DNA from: Nanobdellota archaeon
GTDB lineage: Archaea; Nanobdellota; Nanobdellia; Pacearchaeales; GW2011-AR1
DNA: 44,166 nucleotides
NCBI GenBank assembly: GCA_039714095.1
Contig: JBDLJZ010000003.1
Coordinates: 1-44,166 of the forward strand
Direction of reading: 5' to 3'
Each line of letters starts with the position of its first letter. Within the stretch, counting starts at the first letter, position 1. Made by a program: the position numbers and the translations under genes. The notes beneath the pieces are model-generated. The model saw only the letters and a list, made by a program, of their open reading frames with translations. It made no database searches and was not told the DNA's origin. Positions 2,880 to 44,165 of this stretch are shown here, in pieces.

Positions 2880-4367
2880 ATGAAAGGAAATATTTTATTT
2901 GGAGGTAAAGCAGGACAAGGTCCTAATTTTTTAACACATCTTTTAGGAGAGGCATTAACCAAACAAGGTTATTATGTTTTTTATTCAAGAGATTATGAAT
3001 CTTTAATAAGAGGGGGACACAATTTTAATGTCTTAACTTTTTCAGATGAGCCAGTTTATAGCAACGAAAAAAAAATTGATATCTTAGTTGCATTAGACGA
3101 AAACACAGAAAAAATTCATAGAGATAATCTTAAATCAGATGGAATTCTTTTAGACGGAAATCATTCAAATGTTTATTTTGCAGGAATGCTCTTTAAAATT
3201 TTAAATCTTGAATTTGAATTATTAGAAAATGAGTTAAAGACAAAAGATAAATTTGAAGAAAATATTTCTGAGGCAAAAAAAGGATATAATAACGCCACAA
3301 TAACAATTCAAATTCCAAAAACAAATACAAAAAAATTTAACTTCATCAACGGAAATCAGGGGATTGCATTTGGGGCAATTAAATCAGGGCTTGATGTTTA
3401 TTATGCTTATCCTATGACTCCTGCAACAACGATTTTAGCAGAACTTGCACAAAAGCAAGAGGAAAAGTTGTTTTTAACTTTAGAGCTTGAAAATGAAATT
3501 GCAGTAATAAACGCAGCAATTGGCTCAGCAATGACTGGAGCAAAATCAATGGTCGGAACTTCTGGAGGGGGTTTTGATTTAATGAGTGAAGCACTGAGTT
3601 TAACAGGAATAGCAGAAGTGCCAGTAGTTATTGCATTGATTCAAAGACCAGGACCAGGAACAGGCGTTGCAACTTACACAGGACAAGGAGATTTGCATTT
3701 AGCACGTCACGCAGGACACGGGGAATTCAACAGAATTGTAGTTGCACCAGGCGACCCAAAAGAAGCAGAAGAATTAACCTCACAAGCATTTTATTTTTCA
3801 CAAAAATTCAAAATTCCATCAATTATTTTAGGAGACAAACATATAGGAGAGAGTTTTTACACAATTGCAGGAGAACCAGAAATTACATCTTCAAAAAAAT
3901 CAACAAAACTCAAAAGATACAATAGTTATGAAACCGACGATAATGGAAGTGCAACAGAAAATGCAAAATTAATTATTGAAAATATCAACGAGCGCCAATC
4001 AAAAGCAAAAGATATAGAAAAAGAGGCTTCAAATTTTGAGCAATACAAAGTTTATGGAAATCAAAATTCAGAAAATGTTATTTTATCTTGGGGTTCTACA
4101 AAAGGTGTAATCATAGACGCTACAAAAGATTTAAATTGTAAATTTATTCAGATTTTATATATTGAACCTTTTCCAGAGGATTTGAAAAAACACTTAGAAA
4201 ATAAAAATATAATTTTAATTGAAAACAATGTAACCGCACCAATGGCAGACCTGATTGCAGAAAAAACTGGAATTTTTATTGAAGACAAAAATAAAATTCT
4301 GCGGTACGACGGACGTCCATTTTTATGTGATGAATTAAAAAAAGAAATTGCGGAGAGATTGAAATGA
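2880..4367 (+). CDS. korA: 2-oxoacid:ferredoxin oxidoreductase alpha subunit (gamma-alpha fusion)
   Basis: GGKAGQG, IRGGH, YPMTPAT, ENEIA, TSGGGF and QRPGPGTG motifs. Confidence 0.92.
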   Translation: MKGNILFGGKAGQGPNFLTHLLGEALTKQGYYVFYSRDYESLIRGGHNFNVLTFSDEPVYSNEKKIDILVALDENTEKIHRDNLKSDGILLDGNHSNVYFAGMLFKILNLEFELLENELKTKDKFEENISEAKKGYNNATITIQIPKTNTKKFNFINGNQGIAFGAIKSGLDVYYAYPMTPATTILAELAQKQEEKLFLTLELENEIAVINAAIGSAMTGAKSMVGTSGGGFDLMSEALSLTGIAEVPVVIALIQRPGPGTGVATYTGQGDLHLARHAGHGEFNRIVVAPGDPKEAEELTSQAFYFSQKFKIPSIILGDKHIGESFYTIAGEPEITSSKKSTKLKRYNSYETDDNGSATENAKLIIENINERQSKAKDIEKEASNFEQYKVYGNQNSENVILSWGSTKGVIIDATKDLNCKFIQILYIEPFPEDLKKHLENKNIILIENNVTAPMADLIAEKTGIFIEDKNKILRYDGRPFLCDELKKEIAERLK

Positions 4368-4414
4368 CTAACATATCAACTACAACAAAAAACACCTGGT
4401 GTCCAGGATGTTTT
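4364..4414 (+). repeat. duplicated 5' end of korB (copy of 5169-5219)
   Basis: 49/51 identical; both differences are synonymous (ACT/ACC, CCA/CCT). Its ATG overlaps the korA stop. Confidence 0.95.
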
Positions 4415-4518: not shown

Positions 4519-5172
4519 ATGCCCAAAAAAGTGATTGTTTTTGTTGATGCAAATAATTGGTACCATAATGTAAAAAATTTGATAACTCCAAGCGAAGTAG
4601 ATATTAAAAAATTAGCAGAATTTCTTTGTAAAATTAAAAACTTTGAGTTAATAGATATTTATTGGTATGCTTCAAAACCAAGTATTCAAGACGGAGAAAA
4701 GATGTATTATTCTCATTTGTCATTTTTGAATCATTTAGAAAAAAGCGGAATTAAAATATTTTCAAGAAAATTACAAAGATTATCAAATAAAGAAATAAAA
4801 AAACAAAAATCTCAAAAAATAGATAGTTTAGATTTGTGTAAATCTTGCAAACCATTAATTGAATCTGTTTTTTTAGATTTGGCAGATTTAAAGAAAAATG
4901 AGAAGGGAGTTGATGTTTGGTGTGCAATTGATATGATTGATAAATCTTGCATTGAAAATAATTGTGATGCTTGCATTTTAATTTCGGGCGATGCAGATTT
5001 TGTCCCAGCATTAAATTTGATAAAAAAGAAAAATAAAGATATTTTAGTAGCGAGTAGTCCATTTGGATTTTCAAAAGAATTAAGAGATAATTTTGAGTAT
5101 TTTATTTTAAAAAAAGAAACTCTTATGAAGTGTTTAAGGCAATATAAAAATAATAAGAAAAATAAAAAATGA
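4519..5172 (+). CDS. NYN domain (LabA/DUF88, PIN-like) nuclease
   Basis: VFVDANN, EKGVD and ISGDADF acidic motifs. Confidence 0.9.
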   Translation: MPKKVIVFVDANNWYHNVKNLITPSEVDIKKLAEFLCKIKNFELIDIYWYASKPSIQDGEKMYYSHLSFLNHLEKSGIKIFSRKLQRLSNKEIKKQKSQKIDSLDLCKSCKPLIESVFLDLADLKKNEKGVDVWCAIDMIDKSCIENNCDACILISGDADFVPALNLIKKKNKDILVASSPFGFSKELRDNFEYFILKKETLMKCLRQYKNNKKNKK

Positions 5173-6002
5173 CTAACATATCAACCACAACAAAAAACAC
5201 CTGGTGTCCTGGATGTTTTAATTTCCAAATCTTCGCAGGAGTAAAAAGATTCCTTGAAGAAGAAATAGATTCAGGAAAAGACAAAGACGATTTTGCAATT
5301 GTTACAGGAATTGGATGTCACGCAAAAATGTTTGATTATTTAAACATAAATGGAATTAATTCTCTACACGGAAGGGTTTTGCCAACATGCTTGGGATTAA
5401 AAGTTGGAAATCCAAATTTAAATGTAATAGGTTTTTCAGGGGATGGAGATGCATATGCAGAAGGAATAGCACATACTGTTCACGCTGCAAGATACAATTC
5501 AGATTTTACTTATGTAATCCATAATAATCAAGTTTTCGCATTAACTTTAGGAGAACCAACCCCCACAACTGAATTAGGATTCAAAGATAAAACAACACCT
5601 TTTGGAGTAAATATAAATCCTCTAAACCCTCTAAAATTAATGCTTGCATCAGGCGCAACTTTTGTTGCAAGAGTTTTTGCCGACATAAACCAAGTTAAAG
5701 AAGTTCTAAAAGAAGCACAAAAACACAAAGGATTTTCATTTGTAGAAATAATCCAACCCTGCATTGTTTTTCACAATGACAAAGGTTATAGGGAAAAAAT
5801 TTATAGATTAGAGGATGATGACCACGATAAAACAAGTTTTGAAGAGGCTTGGAGAAAAGCAGACGAATTTAATTATAACACTGTAACTAAAATTCCAGTG
5901 GGGATTTTTTATCAAAAAGAAGCCGAGACTTTTGAGGATAAATTCGCAATGTTAAAAAAGTTCCAAGAAGATAAAACAAGTTGGAAAGATATTAAACGAT
6001 GA
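5169..6002 (+). CDS. korB: 2-oxoacid:ferredoxin oxidoreductase beta subunit
   Basis: WCPGC, GIGC, LHGR and TPP-binding GDGD...NN motifs. Confidence 0.93.
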   Translation: MTNISTTTKNTWCPGCFNFQIFAGVKRFLEEEIDSGKDKDDFAIVTGIGCHAKMFDYLNINGINSLHGRVLPTCLGLKVGNPNLNVIGFSGDGDAYAEGIAHTVHAARYNSDFTYVIHNNQVFALTLGEPTPTTELGFKDKTTPFGVNINPLNPLKLMLASGATFVARVFADINQVKEVLKEAQKHKGFSFVEIIQPCIVFHNDKGYREKIYRLEDDDHDKTSFEEAWRKADEFNYNTVTKIPVGIFYQKEAETFEDKFAMLKKFQEDKTSWKDIKR

Positions 6003-7367: not shown

Positions 7368-8702
7368 TCAAAATTTCAAAACTTTTCCATTAGAACTCAA
7401 ATGAGATGTCTCGCCAAACTTATATCCAAATTCTGAAGCCAATTCAATAAATGGTGTTTCTTGTTCTAAAGATCCATGAGCTGGAATAACATGTTCTGGT
7501 TTTACTAATTCAATTAAATCTCGTAAATCTTCACGACTTCCATGCCCATGAACATGAACATTTGTTTGTAACTTAACTCCCATATTTCTTAATTTTTTAT
7601 CTAATCTTTCACGAAGCATTTGATTTGGTTGAACAGGAATAACACTTGAAGAAAAAATCAAATTATCTCCTTGTCTAAATTTAAACGGAGTTTCTCCCTT
7701 AACAATTCTATCCAATATTGAACCTTTTTCTGCTTGATGCCCTGTACAAACAACCAAATATTTTCCTCTTTCTTTTTCTATTCTTGCTAAAAAAGAATTT
7801 ATCTGTCTACGATATTTAATTAATTTAACTTTATTTTTGAAAGGACATTTCCCAACACTAATCGCACTATTTACATATTTATTCAAACTCCTTCCTAAAA
7901 AAATAATTTGTCTATTAGTTTTTTGAGCAAATTCCACAATATTTTTTAATCTTTCAATATGAGAAGAAAATGTTGTGACAAAAAGTGCCTTATCTTTTCC
8001 TCGTGCTTTTGAAAATGCTTCCTCCAATAAATGTTTTGCAATCGCCTCTCCACCAGGTTTTTTCTCAGTTCCAGAATAAAGAGCGTCTGCAACTAAAACT
8101 TTTACACCTTTTTTACTCAATTCTTTCATACGTTTATAATTAGGAGGATTACCCATTGTTGGATAATTATCAAACTTAAAATCTAACCCATAGAAAAAAA
8201 TTCCATCTTTTGTATGAAGAGCAATAAAAAAACACTGAATTGTTGAATGTGTTACATGAATAAATTCAACTTTCATATCTTTACTAATTTTATGAATAGA
8301 ATTATCTTGTACAGTTTTTTTCACATTTTTTATATTTATTTTATCATCTTCTAAAATTGAATCAATTACAGCCATTGTAAAAGGAGAAGCCATAATAGTT
8401 GCTTTTGGATATCTATGTGAAATATATGGAATTGCACCAATGTGATCTAAATGAGCATGCCCAATAACAATCGCCTTAACCTTATCTCTCCAACCCAATT
8501 TATCTAAAATTAAATCATTTGGAATAGCACCCGCATTCCTGAGTTTTCTCTCAGTATATTGTTGAAAAACCTCATTCTCTTGCAACTCAATAACAGAAGG
8601 CAAATGAAAACCAGCATCAAAAATAACAACATCTTCACCAACCTTAACAGCAGTCATATTCTTCCCAACTTCTTCATAACCTCCAACCGTGCATACTTCC
8701 AT
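7368..8702 (-). CDS. rnj: ribonuclease J (beta-CASP metallo-beta-lactamase)
   Basis: GGYEEVGKNM, HAHLDHIG, HVHGH and PAHG motifs. Confidence 0.9.
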   Translation of the reverse strand: MEVCTVGGYEEVGKNMTAVKVGEDVVIFDAGFHLPSVIELQENEVFQQYTERKLRNAGAIPNDLILDKLGWRDKVKAIVIGHAHLDHIGAIPYISHRYPKATIMASPFTMAVIDSILEDDKINIKNVKKTVQDNSIHKISKDMKVEFIHVTHSTIQCFFIALHTKDGIFFYGLDFKFDNYPTMGNPPNYKRMKELSKKGVKVLVADALYSGTEKKPGGEAIAKHLLEEAFSKARGKDKALFVTTFSSHIERLKNIVEFAQKTNRQIIFLGRSLNKYVNSAISVGKCPFKNKVKLIKYRRQINSFLARIEKERGKYLVVCTGHQAEKGSILDRIVKGETPFKFRQGDNLIFSSSVIPVQPNQMLRERLDKKLRNMGVKLQTNVHVHGHGSREDLRDLIELVKPEHVIPAHGSLEQETPFIELASEFGYKFGETSHLSSNGKVLKF

Positions 8703-10117: not shown

Positions 10118-12902
10118 AAAAATTCCAACCCTTTTTTTAATATTAATTTTAACTATTTTTATTGTTAATTCTTATCAAACAAAAATAACACAAGAAGTAA
10201 TAGATGAATTAGAAAATAATAATGATGTAAGGGTGATAGTTGAATTAAAAGAACCTTCATTAGAAAAAGGAATTATTTTTGTCATAAAAAAAACCTCAGA
10301 TGAAATAAAATCAGAAAAAGAACAAGCCAAACAAGAAATAATAAATCAGGTTAGCAATGAAAAAATAAAACATGTTTTTGATAAGAGTATTGCACTTGAA
10401 ATTTCTGAAAAAAAAATAAAACAATTAGAGAAAAATTCAAATATTAAGTCAATTAAAATTGATAAACCTTTTTTCGCGTTTTTGCAAGATTCTGTCCCAT
10501 TAATTAATGCAAGCACAACTTGGCCAATACAACTAAGCAGTTTTAATATCACTGGGATAAATGAAACAGTTTGTATAATTGATACAGGGGTTGATAGTTC
10601 TCATACAGATCTTCAAAATCAAGTGGTTGGAGAATATTGTTTTTGCTCTGCAACAGAGGGTGTGTATCCAAATTGTTGCCCAGATACAACAAATGAGGAT
10701 AATAACGCAACAGATAATAACGGGCACGGAACACATGTAGCAGGAATTGTTGCAGCATTTGGAGAAATTAATGGAGTTGCAATAGGAGCAAAAATTGCAA
10801 TGGTGAAAGTTTTAAATTCAACAGGTTCAGGATATAGTTCTGACACTGCCGCCGCAATTGAATGGTGTACAAATAATGTGGAGCTTTACAATATTTCAGT
10901 TATAAGTTTGAGTTTAGGAGGAGGCCAATATAATGATTATTGCGACGGAGAAGATGCTACAACCACTAATATAATAAATACAGCTGTTGGAAAAAATATT
11001 TCTGTAATTGTCGCAACAGGGAATATAGATGCGGCTTATCCAAATAAATTAGCGGGAATTGCTTCTCCAGCTTGCATAAAAAATTCAACAAGAATATCTG
11101 CAACAGATAAACTTGATAGTCCTGCTTTTTATGCATTTAGAAATAAAAATTTTACAGATATTTTTTTTGCTCCTGGAACAAGTATTAATTCAACTTCCAC
11201 AATTGCCCTTGATGGTTGTGATCTTTATGGAGATTATATGTCTTGTTCAGGAACCTCAATGTCTGCCCCCCATGTCGCAGGAGCTTTCGCAATAATAAGA
11301 CAATTCTTTAGATTACAAAATAACAAAATTCCGACTTCATCTGAAATTAAAATTCTACTAAATAACACAGGCAAATTAATAGACGACAGTTCTGGAAGCG
11401 GACTAAATTTTACAAGAATAGATGTTTACTCGGCTTTACTTTCAATTGATTCTTCACCTCCAACAGTAAATTTAATTTCCCCAGAAGATAATGAATTTAA
11501 TTTCACACAAAATTTAACTTTCAAATGTTCAGCAAATGATATCCTATTGTCAAATATAACACTCTATGTCTGGAATTCCACAAGCATTTATAATACTACT
11601 TTAAGAGATGTTGCTGGTACAAATGCAGAGGCAGAATTTAATTTAACAAATATTCCTGAAGACGAATACCAATGGAACTGTCTTGCCTATGACCATAATA
11701 ATAATTTTTCTTTTGCTTCTTCTAATTATACTCTAACTTTAAAAAAAATAAACACAATTCTAAATTCACCAACAAACAACACTTTCACAAATCAAGAAAC
11801 ACAAACATTCAACTGCTCTGCACAAACAATTTCTACAAAAGAATTAACAAACATAACTTTTTTTATTTGGAACTCCACAGAATTAATTTACAACACAACA
11901 CAAAATATCTCTGGCACACAAAATTCAACAACATTCCAGCACAATTTAACATCTCCAATAGAATATCATTGGAATTGCCTAACTTATAATAATGAATCCA
12001 ATTTTACTTTTGCAACAAATAATAATACTCTAACATATGACATCACTAAACCAAATGTAACATCAGTTCCAAATTTTCCAACAAACGAAACATCAAACTC
12101 TGCAACAAAATCTTTTTACTATAATGCAACTGATAATTACGGAATTAATAATTGCAGTCTGATTGTGGATAATGTAGTGAGTTTGACAGATTCTTTAATA
12201 AATATTTCTCTAACACAGAATTTTACTAAGATATTTTTACCTGGAACTTACAATTGGCAAATAAATTGCACAGACTTAGCAAATAATATAGAAAATTCTT
12301 CAACCCAGAGTTTTATAATCACTGCTCCAGCTGTAGTAACTTCTTCAGAGGGCAGAGGTAGTGGAAGCTCTTCAGTCAAAACATTTGTCGCATCGCCTGA
12401 ACAAACTTCAACAGGGTACACAAAAGAGTTAGCAAAAAATGACAAAATTAAATTTACAATTCCCAACGAATTATCTGAACAACACACAATCACAACAAAT
12501 TACGTAGGGATAGATTACGCAGACATAACCATTCAAAGCAATCCAATAAATTTTGTTTTATATATAGGAGAAGAAAAAAAATTAAACCTAACTTCCTCAG
12601 AATATTATAATCTTTATATTAAATTAAACTCAATAAAAAATTAAAAGGCGAATCTGACAATTCAAACTATTTATGAGCAGATGATTCAACCCTCCTCTGA
12701 AATTCTGAAAAATAAAACTATAACTGGAAAAACTATTGAAGAAAAAGATAAGCCAGAAATTTTCAAAACAGAATCTTTTAAGAATTTTTTAATCATAATA
12801 CTTATAATCCTTCTTGTCATTATATTAGTAATAAAAAAAAGAAAGAAAAGAAAGGAAGAAAAGAAAAATGAAACCCTTAAAACCAAGCGCACGAGAAAAT
12901 AA
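10110..12902 (+). CDS. S8 subtilisin-like protease with Ig-like repeats; one in-frame TAA (12642-12644) separates the C-terminal TM anchor
   Basis: Catalytic triad motifs IIDTG, HGTHVAG, SGTSMSAPHVAG. The frame continues after the TAA (KANLTIQTIYEQMIQ...) into ORF 12681-12902. Confidence 0.88.
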
Positions 12903-13227
12903 AAGATATCTTTTAGTAGAAGGAAAAAATCTTAAACAAAATATTGAAAAAGCAATTTTAGAATTTATAGGAGTTTTAGGAATGTCACAAGTTGGATTAA
13001 GTTTTATAGAAACACACTCACGAGTGTATACCCACAAGGGGCACGAGAACCTGCAAGCAGGCCCCGAAAAATCTTCAAATAAGATTTCTACAAAGGGTAA
13101 AAATAATTCTACAATAATTTGCATAAACCGAGAAATGGTTGATTCTGTTCGTGCATCACTTTGTGTCTTCCCCGATAAAATAGAAGTAAAAAAAGTTAGT
13201 GGGACTTTGAAAAGTTTAAGAAAATAA
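12868..13227 (+). CDS. pop5: RNase P protein Pop5/Rpp14 with an in-frame insertion
   Basis: PSARENKRYL and VSGTLKSLR ends; located upstream of psmA as in the archaeal exosome superoperon. Confidence 0.8.
   Translation: MKPLKPSARENKRYLLVEGKNLKQNIEKAILEFIGVLGMSQVGLSFIETHSRVYTHKGHENLQAGPEKSSNKISTKGKNNSTIICINREMVDSVRASLCVFPDKIEVKKVSGTLKSLRK
13012..13097 (+). repeat. composite palindromic element inserted in frame in pop5
   Basis: Hairpins ACACTC-AC-GAGTGT, CCTGC-AA-GCAGG and AAATCTT-CAAAT-AAGATTT; the 3' part matches 29067-29100. Confidence 0.75.
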
Positions 13228-13246
13228 TTTTTTAATTTTTAATAGT

Positions 13247-14290
13247 TTATTCCAACTTTTCCAATTCGTTTAATAATTCTTCCACAAGATTTTCTTTCCC
13301 CACATTTCTAATTACTTTTCCATTCTTGAAAAGTATGCCTCCGTTTTCTCTTCCTGCGATTCCTATATCTGCCATTTTCGCTTCGTCTGCATTTACAAAG
13401 CAACCTAGAATTCCAACTTTTATTGGCTTATCGATTTTTGTTAATTTTTCTTCAACTTCTTTTGCAATTTTTATTACATCTATTTTTGCTCTTGCGCATG
13501 TAGGGCAAGAAATCAATATAGCCCCCTTTCTTAATTTAAGTGATTTTAAAATAGAATATCCTGCAAAAATTTCTTTTTTAGGGTCAGCACTTAATGAAAC
13601 TCTAATAGTATCCCCAATACCCTCTAATAACAATGCACCAATACCAATACTTGATTTAATTATTCCTCCTTTTTCTGTCCCTGATTCTGTAATTCCTAGG
13701 TGTAAAGGATAATTTGATTTTTCGGAAAATAATTTATTAGCTCCTATAGTCTCAAAAATATCTGAAGATTTTAAAGAAACAATAATATTATGAAAATTAA
13801 GATCTTCGCAAATTTTAATAGTTTCTAAAGCAGATTCAACTATGGCTTTAGGGCTTGAACCAAATTTTTCCATAATTTTTTTTGGCAAAGAACCTATATT
13901 AATTCCAATTCTTATTGGAATCTTTTTATTTTTTGCCTCTTTAATTATTATTTTTAATTTATCTTCTGAGATATTTCCTGGATTGATTCTTATCTTATCT
14001 ATACCCTGTTTTATACATTCTAATGCTAAAGCATAATCATAATGAATATCTGTAACAAGAGGGATATTTATTTGTTTTTTAATTTTATTTATTTGTTTTG
14101 CAGATTCAATATCTGGAACAGCGATTCTAATGATCTCACAACCTACTGACTCTAATTCAAGAATTTGTTTAACTGTAGAATCTACATCACTAGTTTTTGT
14201 ATTACACATTGATTGAACTCTTATAGGATTATTTCCTCCAATTTTGAGATTACCAATTTTTACTTCTTTTGTTTTTTTTCTTTGAATCAT
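13247..14290 (-). CDS. ispG: (E)-4-hydroxy-3-methylbut-2-enyl-diphosphate synthase
   Basis: IRVQSM, DIHY, RINPGN, LHLGITE, GDTIRVSL motifs; Fe-S ligands in CPTC and GCFVN. Confidence 0.95.
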   Translation of the reverse strand: MIQRKKTKEVKIGNLKIGGNNPIRVQSMCNTKTSDVDSTVKQILELESVGCEIIRIAVPDIESAKQINKIKKQINIPLVTDIHYDYALALECIKQGIDKIRINPGNISEDKLKIIIKEAKNKKIPIRIGINIGSLPKKIMEKFGSSPKAIVESALETIKICEDLNFHNIIVSLKSSDIFETIGANKLFSEKSNYPLHLGITESGTEKGGIIKSSIGIGALLLEGIGDTIRVSLSADPKKEIFAGYSILKSLKLRKGAILISCPTCARAKIDVIKIAKEVEEKLTKIDKPIKVGILGCFVNADEAKMADIGIAGRENGGILFKNGKVIRNVGKENLVEELLNELEKLE

Positions 14291-14349
14291 GTATCTAATT
14301 TAATATAAGTCTTTAAATTATTTATTCAGTTTCATCACCATTAAAAATC

Positions 14350-14388
14350 AAAAAGGTTTCAGGAACTTTGAAAAGTTTAAGAAAATAA
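14350..14388 (+). repeat. second copy of the pop5 3' end
   Basis: Encodes KKVSGTLKSLRK* like 13189-13227, with synonymous codon differences and a 24-bp exact core. Confidence 0.93.
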
Positions 14389-14424
14389 GTGAATATTTAA
14401 AAGGAGTGAGTCGTTTAGAGTTTT

Positions 14425-14922
14425 ATGAAAGAGGGAGCAGGAGAACTATTAAAAACAGTCGGCAAGACTAATGGAGTTTTTTATTGGTTATCTTTGGTGA
14501 TATCTACATTTCTGATTATAAATATTGTTTTTGATCCTTTTGAATTTTTAATAGCATTTGGAACGGGAATTTTTTCTTCAATAGCACTGATATTCTATTT
14601 ATTTATGCCTGATTCGTTTATTTTCCAAATAGATTCATTTTTATATATGATCTTTTTAAGTATAGCTTCGTACCCTTTCTTATTTTATTTTTTATATAAA
14701 AAAAGCAAGAAAAAAATTTATCCTATTCATTTCTTATGGTTCATAAATTTTGTTTTATTAGCAATAGCTACTATAACTTGGACTCTTTATGTAATTTATG
14801 GATGTGTATTTAAAGGTGAAGGTAGTATGGGATGTGTATTGCCGATTGTAACTATCCCCATAATTATCATTTCAAGTCTTGTCGCATACTTCTTTTATTA
14901 CAAATCTGAAGGACTTAAATAA
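14425..14922 (+). CDS. hypothetical multi-pass membrane protein
   Basis: 165-aa ORF with about 5 hydrophobic segments. Confidence 0.75.
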   Translation: MKEGAGELLKTVGKTNGVFYWLSLVISTFLIINIVFDPFEFLIAFGTGIFSSIALIFYLFMPDSFIFQIDSFLYMIFLSIASYPFLFYFLYKKSKKKIYPIHFLWFINFVLLAIATITWTLYVIYGCVFKGEGSMGCVLPIVTIPIIIISSLVAYFFYYKSEGLK

Positions 14923-14934
14923 ATCTGTGAAATG

Positions 14935-14965
14935 TTGAAAAGTTTAAGAAAATAATTTTTTAATT
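14935..14965 (+). repeat. third copy of the pop5 3' end plus downstream T-tract
   Basis: 31 bp identical to 13207-13237 (TTGAAAAGTTTAAGAAAATAATTTTTTAATT). Confidence 0.88.
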
Positions 14966-15441
14966 CTTGTAACAAAATCAATAAAAATTGTGAAATAGAT
15001 TAATAAAATAAACACTTTCATTATATTGTATTTAAATAAAACTTCAGAAATTATCTTTATATCTGGGAAAATAAAAAAATAAAATATTAATGCTAAAATT
15101 AACCACAAAAACGAACTATAAATTGAAACAAGTCCTTTATAATTATAACTCCAATTATAATCCCAAAGTTTTATACCATTTTTTAAGAAAATAATTCCAA
15201 TTACAAATTCAAGTAAAGTTATAGAAATCAAGAACAATAAAATTCTATAAAATAAATTTATATCTAAATATGAAATTAACAGAACAATAACAGCCCCAAA
15301 TCCATAAATTGGCAAATAAATTCCTTTTAAAAATCCTCTATTTGTAAATTGCTTATTAATAATTCCAGTTCTTATTGTTTCAAATATCCAACCAAAAAAA
15401 CTTCCAATAAGAAAAACCAAAATCATTTCTTGAATTATCAT
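14944..15441 (-). CDS. putative ABC transporter permease-like membrane protein (CmpB/DUF1113-like)
   Basis: FLIGSFFGWIFE, NRGFLKG.YLPIYGFG and LWDY motifs. Confidence 0.75.
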   Translation of the reverse strand: MIIQEMILVFLIGSFFGWIFETIRTGIINKQFTNRGFLKGIYLPIYGFGAVIVLLISYLDINLFYRILLFLISITLLEFVIGIIFLKNGIKLWDYNWSYNYKGLVSIYSSFLWLILALIFYFFIFPDIKIISEVLFKYNIMKVFILLIYFTIFIDFVTRIKKLFS

Positions 15442-15573
15442 GGATAGATATATAATTGGATGTTTTAATTACTTTTCATAACATCCCGAAAATTTTATAA
15501 ACACTTTTAACCGCATTTTTTCAGAGAAAAATAAAGAATTAAACATATTATAAAGCTTTTATAAAAATATAAA

Positions 15574-16296
15574 ATGGATATGCCAATAGACATACAGCAC
15601 CAACAGATGGGTTATGACAGAACTGCAACAATGTTCTCTCCAGAGGGACATTTGCTTCAAGTTGAATATGCAGAAAAAACAGTGAGATTAGGCCCACTAA
15701 GCATTGGAATGGTTTGCACAGACGGAGTTTTTATAATCGCTGATAAAAGAATAAAAGATAAATTAATCGTACAAAAATCTGCAATAAAAATCCACGAAGT
15801 TGATTCTCATATTATATCAAGTGTTGCAGGAATTGTTTCAGATTCAAGAGTTTTAATAGAAAAAGCACAAGTCTTAGCACAACAGCACAGATTAACTTAC
15901 GACTCCCCAGCACCAACAGAATCAATAACAAAAGATATAGCTGACATAAAACAATATTTTAGCCAATATGGAGGAGCACGCCCTTTTGGTGTTTCATTAA
16001 TGATAGCAGGAATAACAAATAAAAAACCCGAACTTTTCATAAGCGATGTTACAGGAAGCTATTTATCTTACCACGCAAACGCAATCGGAGAAAACGACGA
16101 AAAAGCAAAAGAACTTTTAAGGGAACACTATAAACAAACTTTAACAATAAAAGAAGGAATAAAACTTACATTAGATATTTTCAAAGAAATTAAAGGAGAC
16201 GATTTTCATATAAGTAAACTTGAACTTGCTTATATTAATAAGGAAGATGAAAAATTAAAAAGATTAGAAGGCAATAAAATAGAAGAATTAAAATGA
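15574..16296 (+). CDS. psmA: proteasome alpha subunit
   Basis: GYDRTATMFSPEGHLLQVEYA and RPFGVS motifs. Confidence 0.96.
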   Translation: MDMPIDIQHQQMGYDRTATMFSPEGHLLQVEYAEKTVRLGPLSIGMVCTDGVFIIADKRIKDKLIVQKSAIKIHEVDSHIISSVAGIVSDSRVLIEKAQVLAQQHRLTYDSPAPTESITKDIADIKQYFSQYGGARPFGVSLMIAGITNKKPELFISDVTGSYLSYHANAIGENDEKAKELLREHYKQTLTIKEGIKLTLDIFKEIKGDDFHISKLELAYINKEDEKLKRLEGNKIEELK

Positions 16297-16499
16297 CAAA
16301 ATCAATAAAAAAAGATTACATAGTGGTAGGGTTAGGATATGATGGAAACGAGGGAGTTTTAATTATGCAAAATCCAAATGAAAATCAATTACCTTCCTAT
16401 GGGGTTGGAGTTACGGCTCAAAGATTATATTCAAAAAAACCAAAAAATAGTGATATTCAAAAAGCAGTTGAAGAATTTTTTAGTGGGGGAAATTTATAA
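16293..16499 (+). CDS. hypothetical protein inserted in the superoperon
   Basis: 68 aa; ATGA overlap with the psmA stop. Confidence 0.65.
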   Translation: MTKSIKKDYIVVGLGYDGNEGVLIMQNPNENQLPSYGVGVTAQRLYSKKPKNSDIQKAVEEFFSGGNL

Positions 16500-16500
16500 A

Positions 16501-16800
16501 ATGACAAGAGATAAATTCACACTAATTACAACAAAAACAAAAGAAGGAGATATTAAGCATAGCTATGCTGGATATAGAAATGTCAACGCCTGCGAGAGTG
16601 AGCCTATAATGGAAAATTTTGGAAATGTCTATGACGGATTAGCAAGACAATATGAACATAAGCATACAGAATTATTATCGTCTTATAATGAAGGAAAAAT
16701 AATAACTAAATTTAAAGGTCCAAAAATTGGAGGAAATCTTTTGCAAAGATGCTTCGGAGCAATAGTTGCAGAAGTTCAGAGGATTCAAGACGGAGTATAA
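16501..16800 (+). CDS. hypothetical protein inserted in the superoperon
   Basis: Start reassigned to 16501 (TAAAATG junction); 99 aa. Confidence 0.65.
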   Translation: MTRDKFTLITTKTKEGDIKHSYAGYRNVNACESEPIMENFGNVYDGLARQYEHKHTELLSSYNEGKIITKFKGPKIGGNLLQRCFGAIVAEVQRIQDGV

Positions 16801-17477: not shown

Positions 17478-17846
17478 ATGGAACAAGAGATAAAAACACA
17501 GTACTTAGAAAACAAAGAAGACTTAGGAGCACTTTTTGAAGATAAAGATTTTGTTAATGTTGCATTAAAAGATGGATATCAGGACCCAGCATTATTTTGT
17601 AAGTGGGAGACTGATATAGATGATTGGTATAATGGATTAACAATCTTAAGAAAAAATGGGGATAATTTTCATTCTTATTGGATTAGCAATAGATATCTTT
17701 CAATAAAAGATGGAGTTATTTCTGAAGATACAACTCCTCATGTTGGAGGCTTCCAATTATCAAGTAAGACAAGTTTTGATTATAACTCATTAAAAGATAT
17801 GTATACGAATGCAGAAAAATTAAACACTCTTGCTGAAGGAAATTAA
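17478..17846 (+). CDS. hypothetical protein between SBDS and rrp4
   Basis: 122-aa ORF tightly spaced on both sides. Confidence 0.75.
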   Translation: MEQEIKTQYLENKEDLGALFEDKDFVNVALKDGYQDPALFCKWETDIDDWYNGLTILRKNGDNFHSYWISNRYLSIKDGVISEDTTPHVGGFQLSSKTSFDYNSLKDMYTNAEKLNTLAEGN

Positions 17847-27975: not shown

Positions 27976-28368
27976 ATGGAAAAGCAGTATAAAAGTTTAG
28001 GTGAGTTGGTTAAAAAATCTGGAGTTATTGGAGCTGTGAGATACAAATTTCTTGAAATGAGAGATCGAAGTAAAGTTTTTAATCATATTTGCATGAATCC
28101 TTCACCCCAGCCTTTAATGACAACGGCGTATAATGGAAACTATGTTGCAGCTTGGGATGATATGGGAATACTTGTTTATTTTAATCCAAATCCAAATTAT
28201 CCCGAGGATGCTTATGGTTCAATTAAGTTAGGAAAAGATGGAACTTATTCTCTTGTAAAATTGACTGAAAAAGAGATTAATAAAAAAATTCCAATAAATT
28301 TTGCCAATAAAATTCATGCAATTGGTGGGACAGATCATTCTCGAACTAAAACTAATCAATCTTCATAA
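27976..28368 (+). CDS. hypothetical protein
   Basis: 130-aa ORF with a TATA-like TTTATATA upstream. Confidence 0.65.
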   Translation: MEKQYKSLGELVKKSGVIGAVRYKFLEMRDRSKVFNHICMNPSPQPLMTTAYNGNYVAAWDDMGILVYFNPNPNYPEDAYGSIKLGKDGTYSLVKLTEKEINKKIPINFANKIHAIGGTDHSRTKTNQSS

Positions 28369-28774
28369 ACAGCCAATTCTTTTTCTCACCACCAAGTTTA
28401 GCATTAACTAAAACATATTTCCCTTTCAATTTTTTTCCAAAAATTTCAAATTCAATTTTTTTGCCCTTAGTAAAAATATCTTTTTGGATATTTTTCTGGG
28501 TACGCCCTTGGGTGCTTAATTCATCATCAATCAGTTCATAAGTCCCTTTGTCCCAAATTTTTACTGTTCCTTTTCCATAACCCTCTTTAATTTCTCCTTC
28601 AAATTTCGCGTAACTAATTGGATGGTCCTCTACTTGAATAGCAAGTCGTTTAATCTTTTTTACCTTTGGTGGAACTTTTGGCAAAGCCCAACTTTTTAAA
28701 ACACCGTTCATCTCAAGACGTAAATCCCAATGCAAATGAGAAGCATTGTGCTCTTGAATTACATATTTTGGCAT
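28352..28774 (-). CDS. stand-alone LigD 3'-phosphoesterase domain with an in-frame insertion
   Basis: YVIQEH, HWDLRLE, VLKSWALPK, VEDHP, YGKGTVKIWDKG motifs. Confidence 0.9.
   Translation of the reverse strand: MPKYVIQEHNASHLHWDLRLEMNGVLKSWALPKVPPKVKKIKRLAIQVEDHPISYAKFEGEIKEGYGKGTVKIWDKGTYELIDDELSTQGRTQKNIQKDIFTKGKKIEFEIFGKKLKGKYVLVNAKLGGEKKNWLFMKID
28463..28515 (-). repeat. palindromic element inserted in frame in the LigD phosphoesterase gene
   Basis: GCACCCAAGGGCGTACCCAGAAAAATATCCAAAAAGATATTTTTACTAAGGGC aligns end to end with 29052-29101. Confidence 0.85.
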
Positions 28775-41625: not shown

Positions 41626-43452
41626 ATGAAACAAATCAGACAACCAATTGTGACTGTCTGCGGACATGTAGACCATGGAAAAACTTCAATTTTAGATTGT
41701 CTTAGAAGCAGCTGTGTCCAGAAAGGCGAAGCAGGAGGAATCACGCAAAAAATATCTTTTACTTCTTATCCAATGAATCAACTCAAAAACGCCTGCCCTT
41801 TAATTGAAAAATTAGGAACAAAATTAAACATTCCAGGATTTTTACTAATTGACACTCCTGGGCACGCAGCATTTACAAATCTAAGAAAACGTGGCGGTTC
41901 TCTTGCTGACTTAGCAGTTCTTGTTATAGATATTAATGATGGGATAAAACCACAAACAGCAGAAGTAATTCAAATTCTAAAACACAATAAAACACCTTTC
42001 ATAATTGCATTAAATAAGATAGATAATATTTCTGGGTGGAAGCCTCCGCAACAAAAAATTGGAGGTTATGAAGAAGCATCAATCTCTTTAAAAGAAAGCA
42101 TTGAATCACAACCACAAAACGTAAAACAAATTTTCAACGAAAGATATATGACAATAATTGGAGCATTAAACAGTCATGGATTTGACGCTGATTTATATTA
42201 TAATATTGATGATTTCACAAAAAAAATTGCTTTAGTTCCAACTTCAGCACAAACAAAAGAAGGCATACCTGAATTAATAATGATGCTTTGCGGAATTTCA
42301 CAAAAATATTTAGCAGATAAATTAGAACTCGGAAAAGATGCAAAAGGGGTAATGCTTGAAATCAAAAAAGAAAAATCTACCAATTATATTGAGGCAATTC
42401 TTTATGATGGAGAACTTAAAAAAACAGATCAAATTGCAGTAGCGTCTTTTGATGGCGAGCGATTTCGTGGTAAGGGCAAACATAGTTCATCAATCTCCTG
42501 TGCGGGGTCGCGAGTTGAACCAATAATAACAAAAATAAGAATCTTAGAAGAAATAAAACCTCTTTGTGCAAAATTTTCTCCAAAAGATAAAGTTACTGCT
42601 TCAACTGGATTAAGAATGCAACTTGTAGAAAAAAAAGAAATTCTTCCAGGAATGCCATTTGAAATTTATAAAAATAATTTAAAAGAAATAAAAGAAAAAT
42701 TCACAAAAGAAATTTCAGAAAACATTCAAACACAAAAACAAGGAATCATCGCAAAAGCAGATTCTTTAGGGAGTTTAGAAGCACTTTTAGTTTTATTAAA
42801 AGAAAATAATATTTCAGTAGTTAAAGTAGGAATTGGAAACATAAATAAAAAAGATATAATTTCAGCAAAGGCAAATCTTGACATAAATGAATTAGATTCA
42901 ATAATTATTGGATTTAATACTTCAATTGATGAAGACGCAAAAGAAATTCAAGGAAACATAAAAGTTTTAACAGAAGAAGTAATTTACAAATTAATTGAAA
43001 ATTTAGTTGAGTGGAGAAAAGAAAAAACAAACGAAATAGAAAAGAAAAGATTAATGGGATTAGCAACAATCACAAAATTAAAAGTTTTACATCAATATGT
43101 TTTTAGAAACACAAGTCCAGCAATTTTCGGAGTTAAAATTGAAGGGGGAAAATTAATTTCTGGACAAAATTTAGTTGATGAAAAAGGAGAAAAAGTAGGG
43201 AAAATAAAAAATATTCAATCAGAACAAAAATCTGTAAACCAAGCAACAGAAGGAATGGAAGTTGCAATATCAATTCCAGGAATAAATTTTGAAAGAGCAA
43301 TGAAAGACAGAAATAATATTTATTCAGATTTAGGAGAATCACAATTTAGAAATTTCAAAAAGAATAAAGATTTGCTCTCGCAAAACGAAATTAAAATTTT
43401 GCAGGAAATTGCAGAAATTAAGCGACAGAAAAAAGCAGATTGGGGAAATTAA
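41626..43452 (+). CDS. infB: translation initiation factor aIF5B/IF2
   Basis: GHVDHGKT, EAGGITQ, DTPGH, NKID and GSLEAL motifs. Confidence 0.96.
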   Translation: MKQIRQPIVTVCGHVDHGKTSILDCLRSSCVQKGEAGGITQKISFTSYPMNQLKNACPLIEKLGTKLNIPGFLLIDTPGHAAFTNLRKRGGSLADLAVLVIDINDGIKPQTAEVIQILKHNKTPFIIALNKIDNISGWKPPQQKIGGYEEASISLKESIESQPQNVKQIFNERYMTIIGALNSHGFDADLYYNIDDFTKKIALVPTSAQTKEGIPELIMMLCGISQKYLADKLELGKDAKGVMLEIKKEKSTNYIEAILYDGELKKTDQIAVASFDGERFRGKGKHSSSISCAGSRVEPIITKIRILEEIKPLCAKFSPKDKVTASTGLRMQLVEKKEILPGMPFEIYKNNLKEIKEKFTKEISENIQTQKQGIIAKADSLGSLEALLVLLKENNISVVKVGIGNINKKDIISAKANLDINELDSIIIGFNTSIDEDAKEIQGNIKVLTEEVIYKLIENLVEWRKEKTNEIEKKRLMGLATITKLKVLHQYVFRNTSPAIFGVKIEGGKLISGQNLVDEKGEKVGKIKNIQSEQKSVNQATEGMEVAISIPGINFERAMKDRNNIYSDLGESQFRNFKKNKDLLSQNEIKILQEIAEIKRQKKADWGN

Positions 43453-43453
43453 G

Positions 43454-43765
43454 ATGAATTTAGAAGAATTAAAAAGAAAGCTAAAACAATATAATAAAAA
43501 AGATATAATTGTGACAAATCACGCAGAATTACAAGCTATTGTTAGAGAAATTAATTTAGATGAAGTAAAGGAAAACATAGTAGATCCGGAAAAATTAGTT
43601 TACATTAAAAAAGAATCAACGCAAAAGGAAAATGAAGAAAAATATGATTGTTATTTCGCATACTCAAAGCAGTTGTATCACAGGTATATAATCGTTATAA
43701 ATGCAAGGATTATTATAGTAACAATAATTAAAATAAATAGGAATTGGCAAAAAGCAATAGGTTAA
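43454..43765 (+). CDS. DUF4258-like putative toxin
   Basis: IIVTNHAELQ...R.I...IIVTI pattern; start reassigned to the coupled ATG at 43454; paired with a DUF2283-like gene. Confidence 0.6.
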   Translation: MNLEELKRKLKQYNKKDIIVTNHAELQAIVREINLDEVKENIVDPEKLVYIKKESTQKENEEKYDCYFAYSKQLYHRYIIVINARIIIVTIIKINRNWQKAIG

Positions 43766-43766
43766 A

Positions 43767-44108
43767 ATGGAAAATTTTAAATTTAGTTATGATTCTGAAA
43801 ATGATGATTTATTTATGTATTTAGAAGGAAAAAAATCTAAAGGAGCAGTCGAATTAGGAAACTTTATTTTGGATTTTGATAATAAAGGAAATTTGGTAGC
43901 CATGCAAATTCTTAATGTTTCAGAAATCATTTCGAAGATTCTTTCAAAAATAATAAAAATTTCTGAGTTAAAAGAAGTAAAAATGAACATTATTAATTTT
44001 AGAAATATGGATGCTATAAGATTTTATATTTCAGATGGAATTAATGAAGAAACTACAAATATTTTAATACCGCACATTAAAGAAAAAAGTCCTGTTTTGA
44101 GTCATTAA
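43767..44108 (+). CDS. DUF2283-family protein (putative antitoxin)
   Basis: YDSENDDLFMY and ILDFDNKGNLVAMQILNVS motifs. Confidence 0.8.
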   Translation: MENFKFSYDSENDDLFMYLEGKKSKGAVELGNFILDFDNKGNLVAMQILNVSEIISKILSKIIKISELKEVKMNIINFRNMDAIRFYISDGINEETTNILIPHIKEKSPVLSH

Positions 44109-44165
44109 ATTTTGCAGGAAATTGCAGAAATTAAGCGACAGAAAAAAGATGGATGGGAAAATTAG
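44107..44165 (+). repeat. second copy of the infB 3' end
   Basis: 42 bp identical to 43394-43435, then DGWEN* versus ADWGN* with the stop at the same codon. Confidence 0.95.

Follow-up and report, generated by a model that had tools for sequence, protein, structure and literature searches.

The stretch of DNA analysed here, called the window, comprises 44,166 nt on contig C3 of a Nanobdellota archaeon (G000, the genome under study; 756,630 bases, completeness 89.6%). Its subject is the interval between pop5, the gene for the RNase P protein subunit Pop5/Rpp14, and psmA, the gene for the proteasome alpha subunit, where three copies of the 3′ end of pop5 (R1, R2 and R3) alternate with inserted genes. 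The array is probably, though by no means securely, a scar left when foreign DNA was inserted on at least two occasions by host recombination with the DNA of related archaea, and not the work of a dedicated cassette machine. Three copies of the gene end are present, two of which enclose an insert as 31-nt direct repeats; the junction is uninterrupted in relatives; R2 has a flank of foreign type; the cargo is rare; and similar scars are found elsewhere in the genome.

Three pop5 ends and the insert between them

The order is pop5 (12868..13227, + strand, 119 aa), R1, ispG (13247..14290, − strand), R2, a membrane gene (14425..14922, + strand), R3, a cmpB-family membrane gene (14944..15441, − strand) and psmA (15574..16296, + strand), which is followed by SBDS, Rrp4, Rrp41 and Rrp42. 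An earlier reading of the sequence, referred to here as the original prediction, gave the same order, and the gene that it called permease-like belongs to the CmpB family (PF06541, 91.3 bits), the ancestral convergent neighbour of pop5. The 21-nt core of the repeat, TTGAAAAGTTTAAGAAAATAA, is found exactly at positions 13207, 14368 and 14935, on the + strand each time. By chance 0.09 copies are expected, and none of 100 shuffles reached three matches. Within G000 the exact core is confined to these three sites; the two near-copies with 2 mismatches are on C12 and C18, the latter in unrelated sequence.

R1 (13186..13237, + strand) is the functional pop5 tail (VKKVSGTLKSLRK and the stop) plus TTTTTTAATT, with the core at 13207-13227. 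R3 (14935..14965, + strand) is the core plus TTTTTTAATT, and is identical to R1 13207-13237 over all 31 nt, T-tract included. Its reverse strand supplies the last three codons of cmpB and the stop codon at 14944-14946. R2 (14332..14388, + strand, core 14368-14388) is an orphan remnant of a pop5 tail without a gene body: its reading frame is open from 14317 only, a start codon is absent, and it has neither the T-tract nor a right arm. In frame it ends in IKKVSGTLKSLRK and a stop, and reads AAG/TCA/GGA where pop5 reads AAA/AGT/GGG. The stretch common to R1 and R2 is 24 nt long. The original prediction had described R2 as the same peptide in different codons, including Ser AGT versus TCA, and R3 as 31 bp of R1 with the T-tract whose reverse strand closes the gene at 14944-15441; both descriptions are correct.

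A T6 tract is found right after the pop5 stop in R1 and 34 nt past the membrane-gene stop in R3, as would be the case if the copies were a reused regulatory module, i.e., a terminator or other 3′-end signal copied for its function. This is scarcely credible, however, since R2 has no T-tract, the repeated part is pop5 coding sequence, in frame and with its stop included, and a scan of 12868-15888 against Rfam gave no match. Two other candidate features were set aside. An inverted pair around ispG (13229-13246 and 14337-14354, 18 nt, 89%) was judged to be due to chance, with 50 such pairs present in 3.5 kb, and the ends of the insert display no inverted repeat. The exact 21-mer is also found in 5 viral contigs (4 near-identical, 1 related), in another reading frame and at the end of an unrelated gene, and was taken as coincidence.

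The junction was compared with 40 pop5 loci in genomes that belong to the same family and order, and with 39 metagenome loci, of which 4 match just the repeat element within pop5 and 3 are cut inside pop5. The closest relatives are G001, which is of the same genus, L088 and L093, and in all three pop5 converges directly on cmpB, and psmA follows. The two genes overlap by 30 nt in G001, 12 nt in L088 and 30 nt in L093, and ispG and the membrane gene are absent from this junction in all three. The 1,697 nt at 13238..14934 of the window, bounded by the 31-nt direct repeats, are therefore read as an insert. The right flank of R3 is orthologous to the cmpB ends of the three relatives (9-11 of 15 nt per bin against L088 and L093). 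The right flank of R1 matches that of R3 for 10 nt and then falls to background level.

The interval between pop5 and psmA is the most variable of the three exosome-cluster junctions compared. Of 42 dereplicated loci, 25 have more than 300 nt between the two genes; at the psmA-SBDS junction this is so in 9 loci of 37, and at SBDS-rrp4 in 6 of 34. These counts are of relatives, which are not independent of one another; in 11 loci no psmA is found within 3 kb of pop5. The cargo is unrelated between relatives, and includes a nucleotidyltransferase, PAP2 with GT2, a sigma-70-like protein, IMPDH/GMP reductase, ParE/YafQ, a response regulator and HTH proteins. Thus the hotspot put forward in the original prediction is supported. 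That prediction would have been contradicted by an invariant interval among relatives, and the cargo does vary. No second copy of the locus's own pop5 tail (21 nt, up to 4 mismatches) was detected within 6-7 kb in related loci, and the sole match of the repeat search among relatives, in L052, lies past psmA and has 4 mismatches.

It was also observed that the contig ends within 300 nt past pop5, or inside pop5, in 12 of 74 dereplicated pop5 loci (L009, L013, L015, L076, L077, L092, L108, L114, L117, L118, L121 and L124). L103 breaks off 27 nt past the pop5 stop codon, and its near-twin L102 continues. These early ends could reflect strain variation at the junction or merely short contigs.

An assembly artefact should also be considered, in which strain variants were joined serially, or a free 1.7-kb circle carrying ispG, the membrane gene and one 31-nt site was threaded into an uninterrupted junction. 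A sequencing run in which 0.99 of the 31-mers occur is probably from the source sample, and words of this length cannot bridge a 31-nt repeat; assemblies also break often at this place, as just noted. However, repeats of 21-31 nt are far below read length and the usual final k, and R2 together with both its flanks is shorter than the span of the 31-mers. A serial join would moreover need a word common to the ispG upstream region and the pop5 tail, which is R2 itself, and a similar pattern is found at several loci and also in the independently assembled G001. An artefact is accordingly quite unlikely.

Both cargo genes appear, from their distribution among sequenced genomes, to be foreign to the group. 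The first encodes HMBPP synthase (IspG, GcpE; 347 aa, Pfam 458.6 bits, NCBIfam equivalog NF001540 448 bits). Among 60 relatives a single one has this gene, as a fragment, and a search of 400 other genomes of the order gave four, three at 38-40% identity and the fourth this same fragment. The best homologues of the window's ispG, at 62-74% identity, are in metagenome-assembled genomes, two of them named Nanoarchaeota; the next, at ~58-59%, are in Patescibacteria and clostridia. The second cargo gene encodes a 165-aa integral membrane protein of no family, with no Pfam or NCBIfam match and with Atlas scores all <0.9. Among 5.8 billion proteins it has three homologues at 45-47% identity, and across the 400 genomes of the order there are marginal partial matches only, none of them convincing. 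These distributions, with the absence of the insert from the three closest relatives, agree with the acquisition that the original prediction proposed. The G+C of ispG (0.284) and of the membrane gene (0.273) is near that of the genome (0.289), and therefore the donors would be compositionally similar or the genes long resident.

ispH (PF02401) and ispF (PF02542) were not found in G000; other genes of the methylerythritol phosphate pathway were not searched for. ispG thus seems to stand alone in this genome. At locus L078 the ispG gene adjoins a 240-aa open reading frame (ORF), which is a candidate IS200/605-type transposase (TnpB-like) as judged by eye.

Origin of R2 and the route of insertion

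The left flank of R2 is that of a pop5 gene, but not that of the pop5 gene of the window. Over the 15 nt to the left of the core, R2 matches G001, L088 and L093 at 14 positions of 15 and R1 at 10. The three relatives agree with each other at 15 of 15 and with R1 at 11 of 15. Over the following 15 nt the match between R2 and the relatives is 8-10 of 15, with a background mean of 4.4 (P = 0.004 for 10 or more), and the homology to pop5 fades ~30-36 nt left of the core. R2 with its core is identical to the pop5 tail of L088 over 33 nt. These alignments suggest that R2 is a pop5 tail from another lineage.

Important is the serine codon. AGT and TCA differ in all three bases and the 23 adjacent bases are unchanged, which argues that R2 is not a dead copy of R1 that has drifted. 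The pattern of differences between the two copies indicates that R1, R2 or both would have arrived in the DNA of a related lineage, as a working pop5 end, and at least two events at the junction would then be required. The repeated acquisition proposed in the original prediction agrees with this reading of R2.

The same codon bears on whether the repeats are a long target-site duplication, whereby a staggered break in A+T-rich DNA captured the cargo by end-joining, overhangs of 20-60 nt were filled in, and the copies drifted later. Consistent with such an origin, repeat length differs by locus (22-87 nt), R1 and R3 are identical to this day, and a gene for a LigD 3′-phosphoesterase is present in the window (28352-28774). 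However, drift of a dead copy does not yield a change of AGT to TCA beside 23 unchanged nt, nor identity with the L088 tail, and at this and the other duplicated gene ends described below, the differences between copies are commonest at third codon positions, and the stop codons are kept. A target-site duplication is thus improbable.

To return to host recombination, it is the route, the number and order of the events and the donors that we infer. In the ancestor, pop5 (+) and cmpB (−) would have been convergent, with their last 12-30 nt common to both, and DNA from relatives with a pop5 end beside cargo would have recombined through this short homology. Two routes can be considered. In the first (route a), a circularised fragment would be integrated by a single crossover in the common end, i.e., an insertion of Campbell type. 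The copy attached to the gene would then consist of resident sequence in its left part and incoming sequence in its right part, and the orphan copy would be built the other way round. At pop5 the TCA-GGA form would be the donor type, and L088 has such a tail. This route would require two integrations, or one 1.7-kb circle that already carried R2. In the second (route b), a linear fragment would be anchored by homology in pop5 and completed by an illegitimate joint upstream of the old end, i.e., homology-facilitated illegitimate recombination. The old 3′ end would be displaced downstream, so that R2, which is typical of the clade, would be the former resident end, and R1 would have come in with the new DNA.

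Both routes would duplicate the gene end. R1 now completes pop5 and supplies its T-tract, R3 completes cmpB and places a T-tract behind the membrane gene, and R2 would be a left-over pop5 tail stranded between divergently oriented cargo genes. Because pop5 and cmpB overlap at their ends, only products that duplicate the end keep both genes whole. Such a filter may explain why R1 and R3 are exactly the common segment with its T-tract, and that the two have stayed identical may be explained by the segment being coding on both strands. Repeats specific to each locus, allele-like differences between the copies and the lack of an integrase together point to host recombination with relatives' DNA through short homology at the gene end.

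A site-specific cassette system was also weighed. Serial loading of circular cassettes is known from integrons and from Xer-exploiting elements (IMEX), and here a recombinase encoded elsewhere, XerA-like or another tyrosine recombinase, would find its att- or dif-like site in the 21-31-nt core. The three copies are direct and in the same orientation, with a perfect 31-nt pair among them, and the core with its T-tract forms an imperfect palindrome. G000 has four PF00589 tyrosine-recombinase matches, three of them over the cut-off, and at the IF2 gene different cargo is found between tail copies in G000 and G001. Nevertheless the core is found at this locus alone in the genome, the repeats of the seven other junctions share no motif with it, and the exact matches in viral contigs are out of frame and at the end of an unrelated gene. 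In addition, R2 has no right arm, and the pop5 tails of relatives are conserved no further than coding demands and are never repeated. The four PF00589 matches are on C1, C16 and C6, and there is no recombinase on the contig of the window; among the 37 window ORFs scanned, neither a recombinase nor a transposase was found. A system of this kind has, in our judgement, little chance of being the explanation.

The tyrosine recombinases of G000 include a XerA-like gene (141 bits) at C1:51800-52606, which is two genes from the gene-end duplication on C1 described in the next section. C1, C16 and C6 carry another two to three integrase-like genes, 380-400 aa in length.

Duplicated gene ends at other junctions

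G000 was scanned for direct repeats of at least 22 nt within 8 kb, which gave 64 pairs. Many of these are paralogous repeats inside genes or copies of dispersed G+C-rich elements. Gene-end repeats that flank small cargo are found at 8 junctions, pop5 included, a count that rests on crude ORF calls and manual inspection. No motif is common to the repeats of the eight junctions.

Two of the seven further junctions are in the window. The first 17 codons of the pyruvate:ferredoxin oxidoreductase (POR) beta gene, PORb, are duplicated at 4364-4414 and 5169-5219 (49 of 51 nt identical, with two synonymous changes). The cargo between the copies is an NYN-domain gene (4519-5172), which splits the POR operon. 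In G001 and in several genera of the family, other genes have been inserted between PORa and PORb, and no duplications survive there. The tail of IF2 is present at 43394-43435 and 44107-44148, exact over 42 nt and followed by a diverged end. Its cargo, a 103-aa ORF and a DUF2283 protein, occupies ORFs at 43454-43765 and 43767-44108, and the contig stops 18 nt past the second copy.

The other five junctions are on other contigs. On C1, 22 nt of the tail of a PD-(D/E)XK nuclease gene are repeated around two small ORFs. On C2, the tail of Dph2 (40 of 43 nt) encloses DUF4325 and a HATPase_c_2 protein, and on C10, the tail of a Zn-ribbon gene (23 nt and a diverged end) encloses HicA and HicB, ahead of a convergent adk. 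The tail of a DUF357 gene on C22 (49 of 52 nt) is repeated beyond ParE and a partner, and that of SMC on C7 (75 of 77 nt), in a nested pattern, beyond a 280-aa ORF and a Fic protein.

The differences between copies at the eight loci fall 9, 7 and 21 times at first, second and third codon positions (chi-square p=0.0096). Of 130 codons, 15 differ synonymously and 11 non-synonymously. The orphan copies keep an in-frame stop, in the same place or, in two cases, one codon later. Such a third-position bias together with kept stops would be expected if both copies had once worked as gene ends in different genomes.

Two repeats were left out of the count or classed apart. A four-copy repeat on C33 resembles paralogous gene ends. 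An exact 87-nt repeat flanks an AglB/STT3 gene (C4:5061-5147 and 7873-7959) and has no Rfam match; in G001 (locus L191) it is present as two tandem copies adjoining the DUF357-ParE locus, and therefore it appears to be a dispersed element and not a target duplication.

Two genomes served as controls for the scan. In 381 kb of G003, of the same family, 9 repeat pairs were found, none of which are clearly gene-end duplications around cargo; its long direct repeats are tandem paralogous permease genes. In 182 kb of G001, 21 pairs were found, and the two inspected are both orphan gene tails beyond cargo, one of ~200 nt at a distance of 2,618 nt with in-frame stops, and one of 31 nt at 1,483 nt. 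In G001 an orphan IF2 tail is also present, 756 nt past the IF2 gene and beyond cargo unrelated to that of the window; no orphan IF2 tail was found in 28 other relatives. The incidence of these scars is 8 loci in the 757 kb of G000 and, in G001, at least 3 in 182 kb together with IF2, with G003 not clearly displaying them.

Several points weigh against insertion by host recombination as proposed here. Under the two routes R1 and R2 would have opposite origins, and the gene ends favour neither route: the copy attached to the gene is clade-atypical at pop5, clade-typical at IF2 and DUF357. A repeated pop5 tail is absent in related loci, so the process is not seen acting there. No donor with ispG or the membrane gene beside pop5 was found, and in the one archaeal context examined, that of the L078 ispG (63% identity), the gene is not at pop5. 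The third-position bias is suggestive, with only 37 differences in stretches delimited by hand, and the control genomes for the repeat scan are two only. Lastly, the perfect 31-nt identity of R1 and R3 would equally suit a site-specific site.

A broader possibility, put forward tentatively and with the chances rather against it, is that duplicated ends are self-made, locus-specific homology arms and that junctions of housekeeping genes are reusable cargo slots in this genus. Toxin-antitoxin, Fic, NYN and ispG modules might then be swapped between related genomes by host recombination, with no integrase. The pop5 locus would be a two-cassette array, and IF2 a slot that is filled in both G000 and G001, with different cargo.

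The genomes of DPANN archaea are very small and tightly packed, and to our knowledge few classical mobile elements have been tied to gene gain in them. Keyword literature searches found no paper that describes gene-end duplications around cargo in DPANN. The pop5 locus shows, base by base, a way in which foreign genes can enter between overlapping essential genes, with neither of these broken and the common end duplicated. The seven further junctions, with mostly toxin-antitoxin or defence-type genes as cargo, suggest that genes are regularly gained in this lineage through recombination at short gene-end homology. Across the genus, it is the gene-end duplications with toxin-antitoxin-type cargo that offer the more interesting lead.

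Known systems and neighbouring features

In layout the array resembles an integron, with single-gene cassettes in an ordered array at a fixed site, and to this extent the integron-like description of the original prediction holds. It does not hold as a description of a cassette system. As that prediction itself stated, there is no attC and no integrase at the array: no PF00589 match is found among the window ORFs and thus no intI, and the repeat is the pop5 coding tail, without an Rfam match and with a core unique to this locus. Unlike integron cassettes, which have one orientation under a common promoter, ispG and the membrane gene are on opposite strands. The repeat is the target gene's own coding end, no relative repeats its own tail, and the repeats of the other junctions are specific to their loci. 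Thus a repeat array behind a gene need not be an integron-like system. Read in this way, the locus is a record of repeated gene gain at a preferred junction by general recombination and not an integron-like device.

Among the systems compared, the best fit is with the 3′-end (C-terminal) displacement arrays of Rhs, contact-dependent inhibition (CDI) and type VI secretion system (T6SS) effector-immunity loci. In the available portions of the source these are ascribed to homology-facilitated illegitimate recombination, and their layout is likened to that of an integron (Kirchberger et al. 2017, PMC5361080). In both cases, as far as those portions describe the arrays, a constant gene body with its current 3′ end is followed by orphaned older ends, each with cargo, and the incoming DNA is anchored by homology in the gene, with no integrase. 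At pop5, orphan ends precede cargo or a neighbour's end (R2 the membrane gene, R3 the cmpB end). The orphan and current ends also appear to be alleles of different lineages, given the flank of R2 and the third-position bias at the eight loci. Jackson et al. (2009) reportedly wrote on such displacement arrays, and are cited there by Kirchberger and colleagues. Unlike the effector genes in those portions of the source, pop5 encodes a housekeeping RNase P subunit, its displaced ends are 7-19 codons long and carry no toxin domain, its cargo is metabolic or membrane-related, and the duplication is forced by an overlapping convergent neighbour.

Tycheposons, as far as they are described in the available parts of a preprint, are islands formed by serial site-specific integration at the 3′ ends of tRNAs and other genes (Hackl et al. 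2020, 10.1101/2020.12.28.424599). There, as at pop5, the 3′ end of the target is restored, partial copies of the end border successive cargo modules, and newer elements displace older ones outward. In the same parts of that source, tycheposons bring a tyrosine recombinase and one att motif of ~40 nt, whereas the insert in the window has no integrase and each locus has its own repeat. More generally, the direct 31-nt repeats that restore the gene, and the empty site in G001, L088 and L093, are those of an integrative element, but the insert holds ispG and the membrane ORF only.

In Campbell-type insertion-duplication, a circle is integrated by a single crossover, and direct repeats flank the insert, each copy part resident and part incoming. 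Most known cases are plasmids and laboratory constructs in which the homology is long; in G000 it is 21-60 nt, and the circles are hypothetical. A transposon or casposon is not indicated, as there are no terminal inverted repeats, the length of the repeat varies by locus and no transposase was found.

Among the neighbouring genes, three small ORFs without a family (16293-16499, 16501-16800 and 17478-17846) lie end-to-end between psmA, SBDS and rrp4, genes that are separated in G001 by gaps of 2 and 13 nt. No flanking duplications are seen around these three ORFs. The 99-aa ORF among them has a weak homologue in the equivalent position in G009 (31.6% identity).

The Pop5 protein of the window scores 20.5 bits against PF01900, below the Pfam cut-off of 23, which its orthologues in G001 (27.6 bits) and L088 (26.8 bits) pass. 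The low score is due to an in-frame insertion of 84 nt inside the gene, at ~13010-13095, which is G+C-rich and hairpin-rich and is absent in the pop5 genes of all relatives. Copies or parts of this G+C-rich element are found on both strands of many contigs, often within ORFs, with sites at C20:9077, C1:50365, C5:18667, C18:6711, C17:12172, C41:998 and others.

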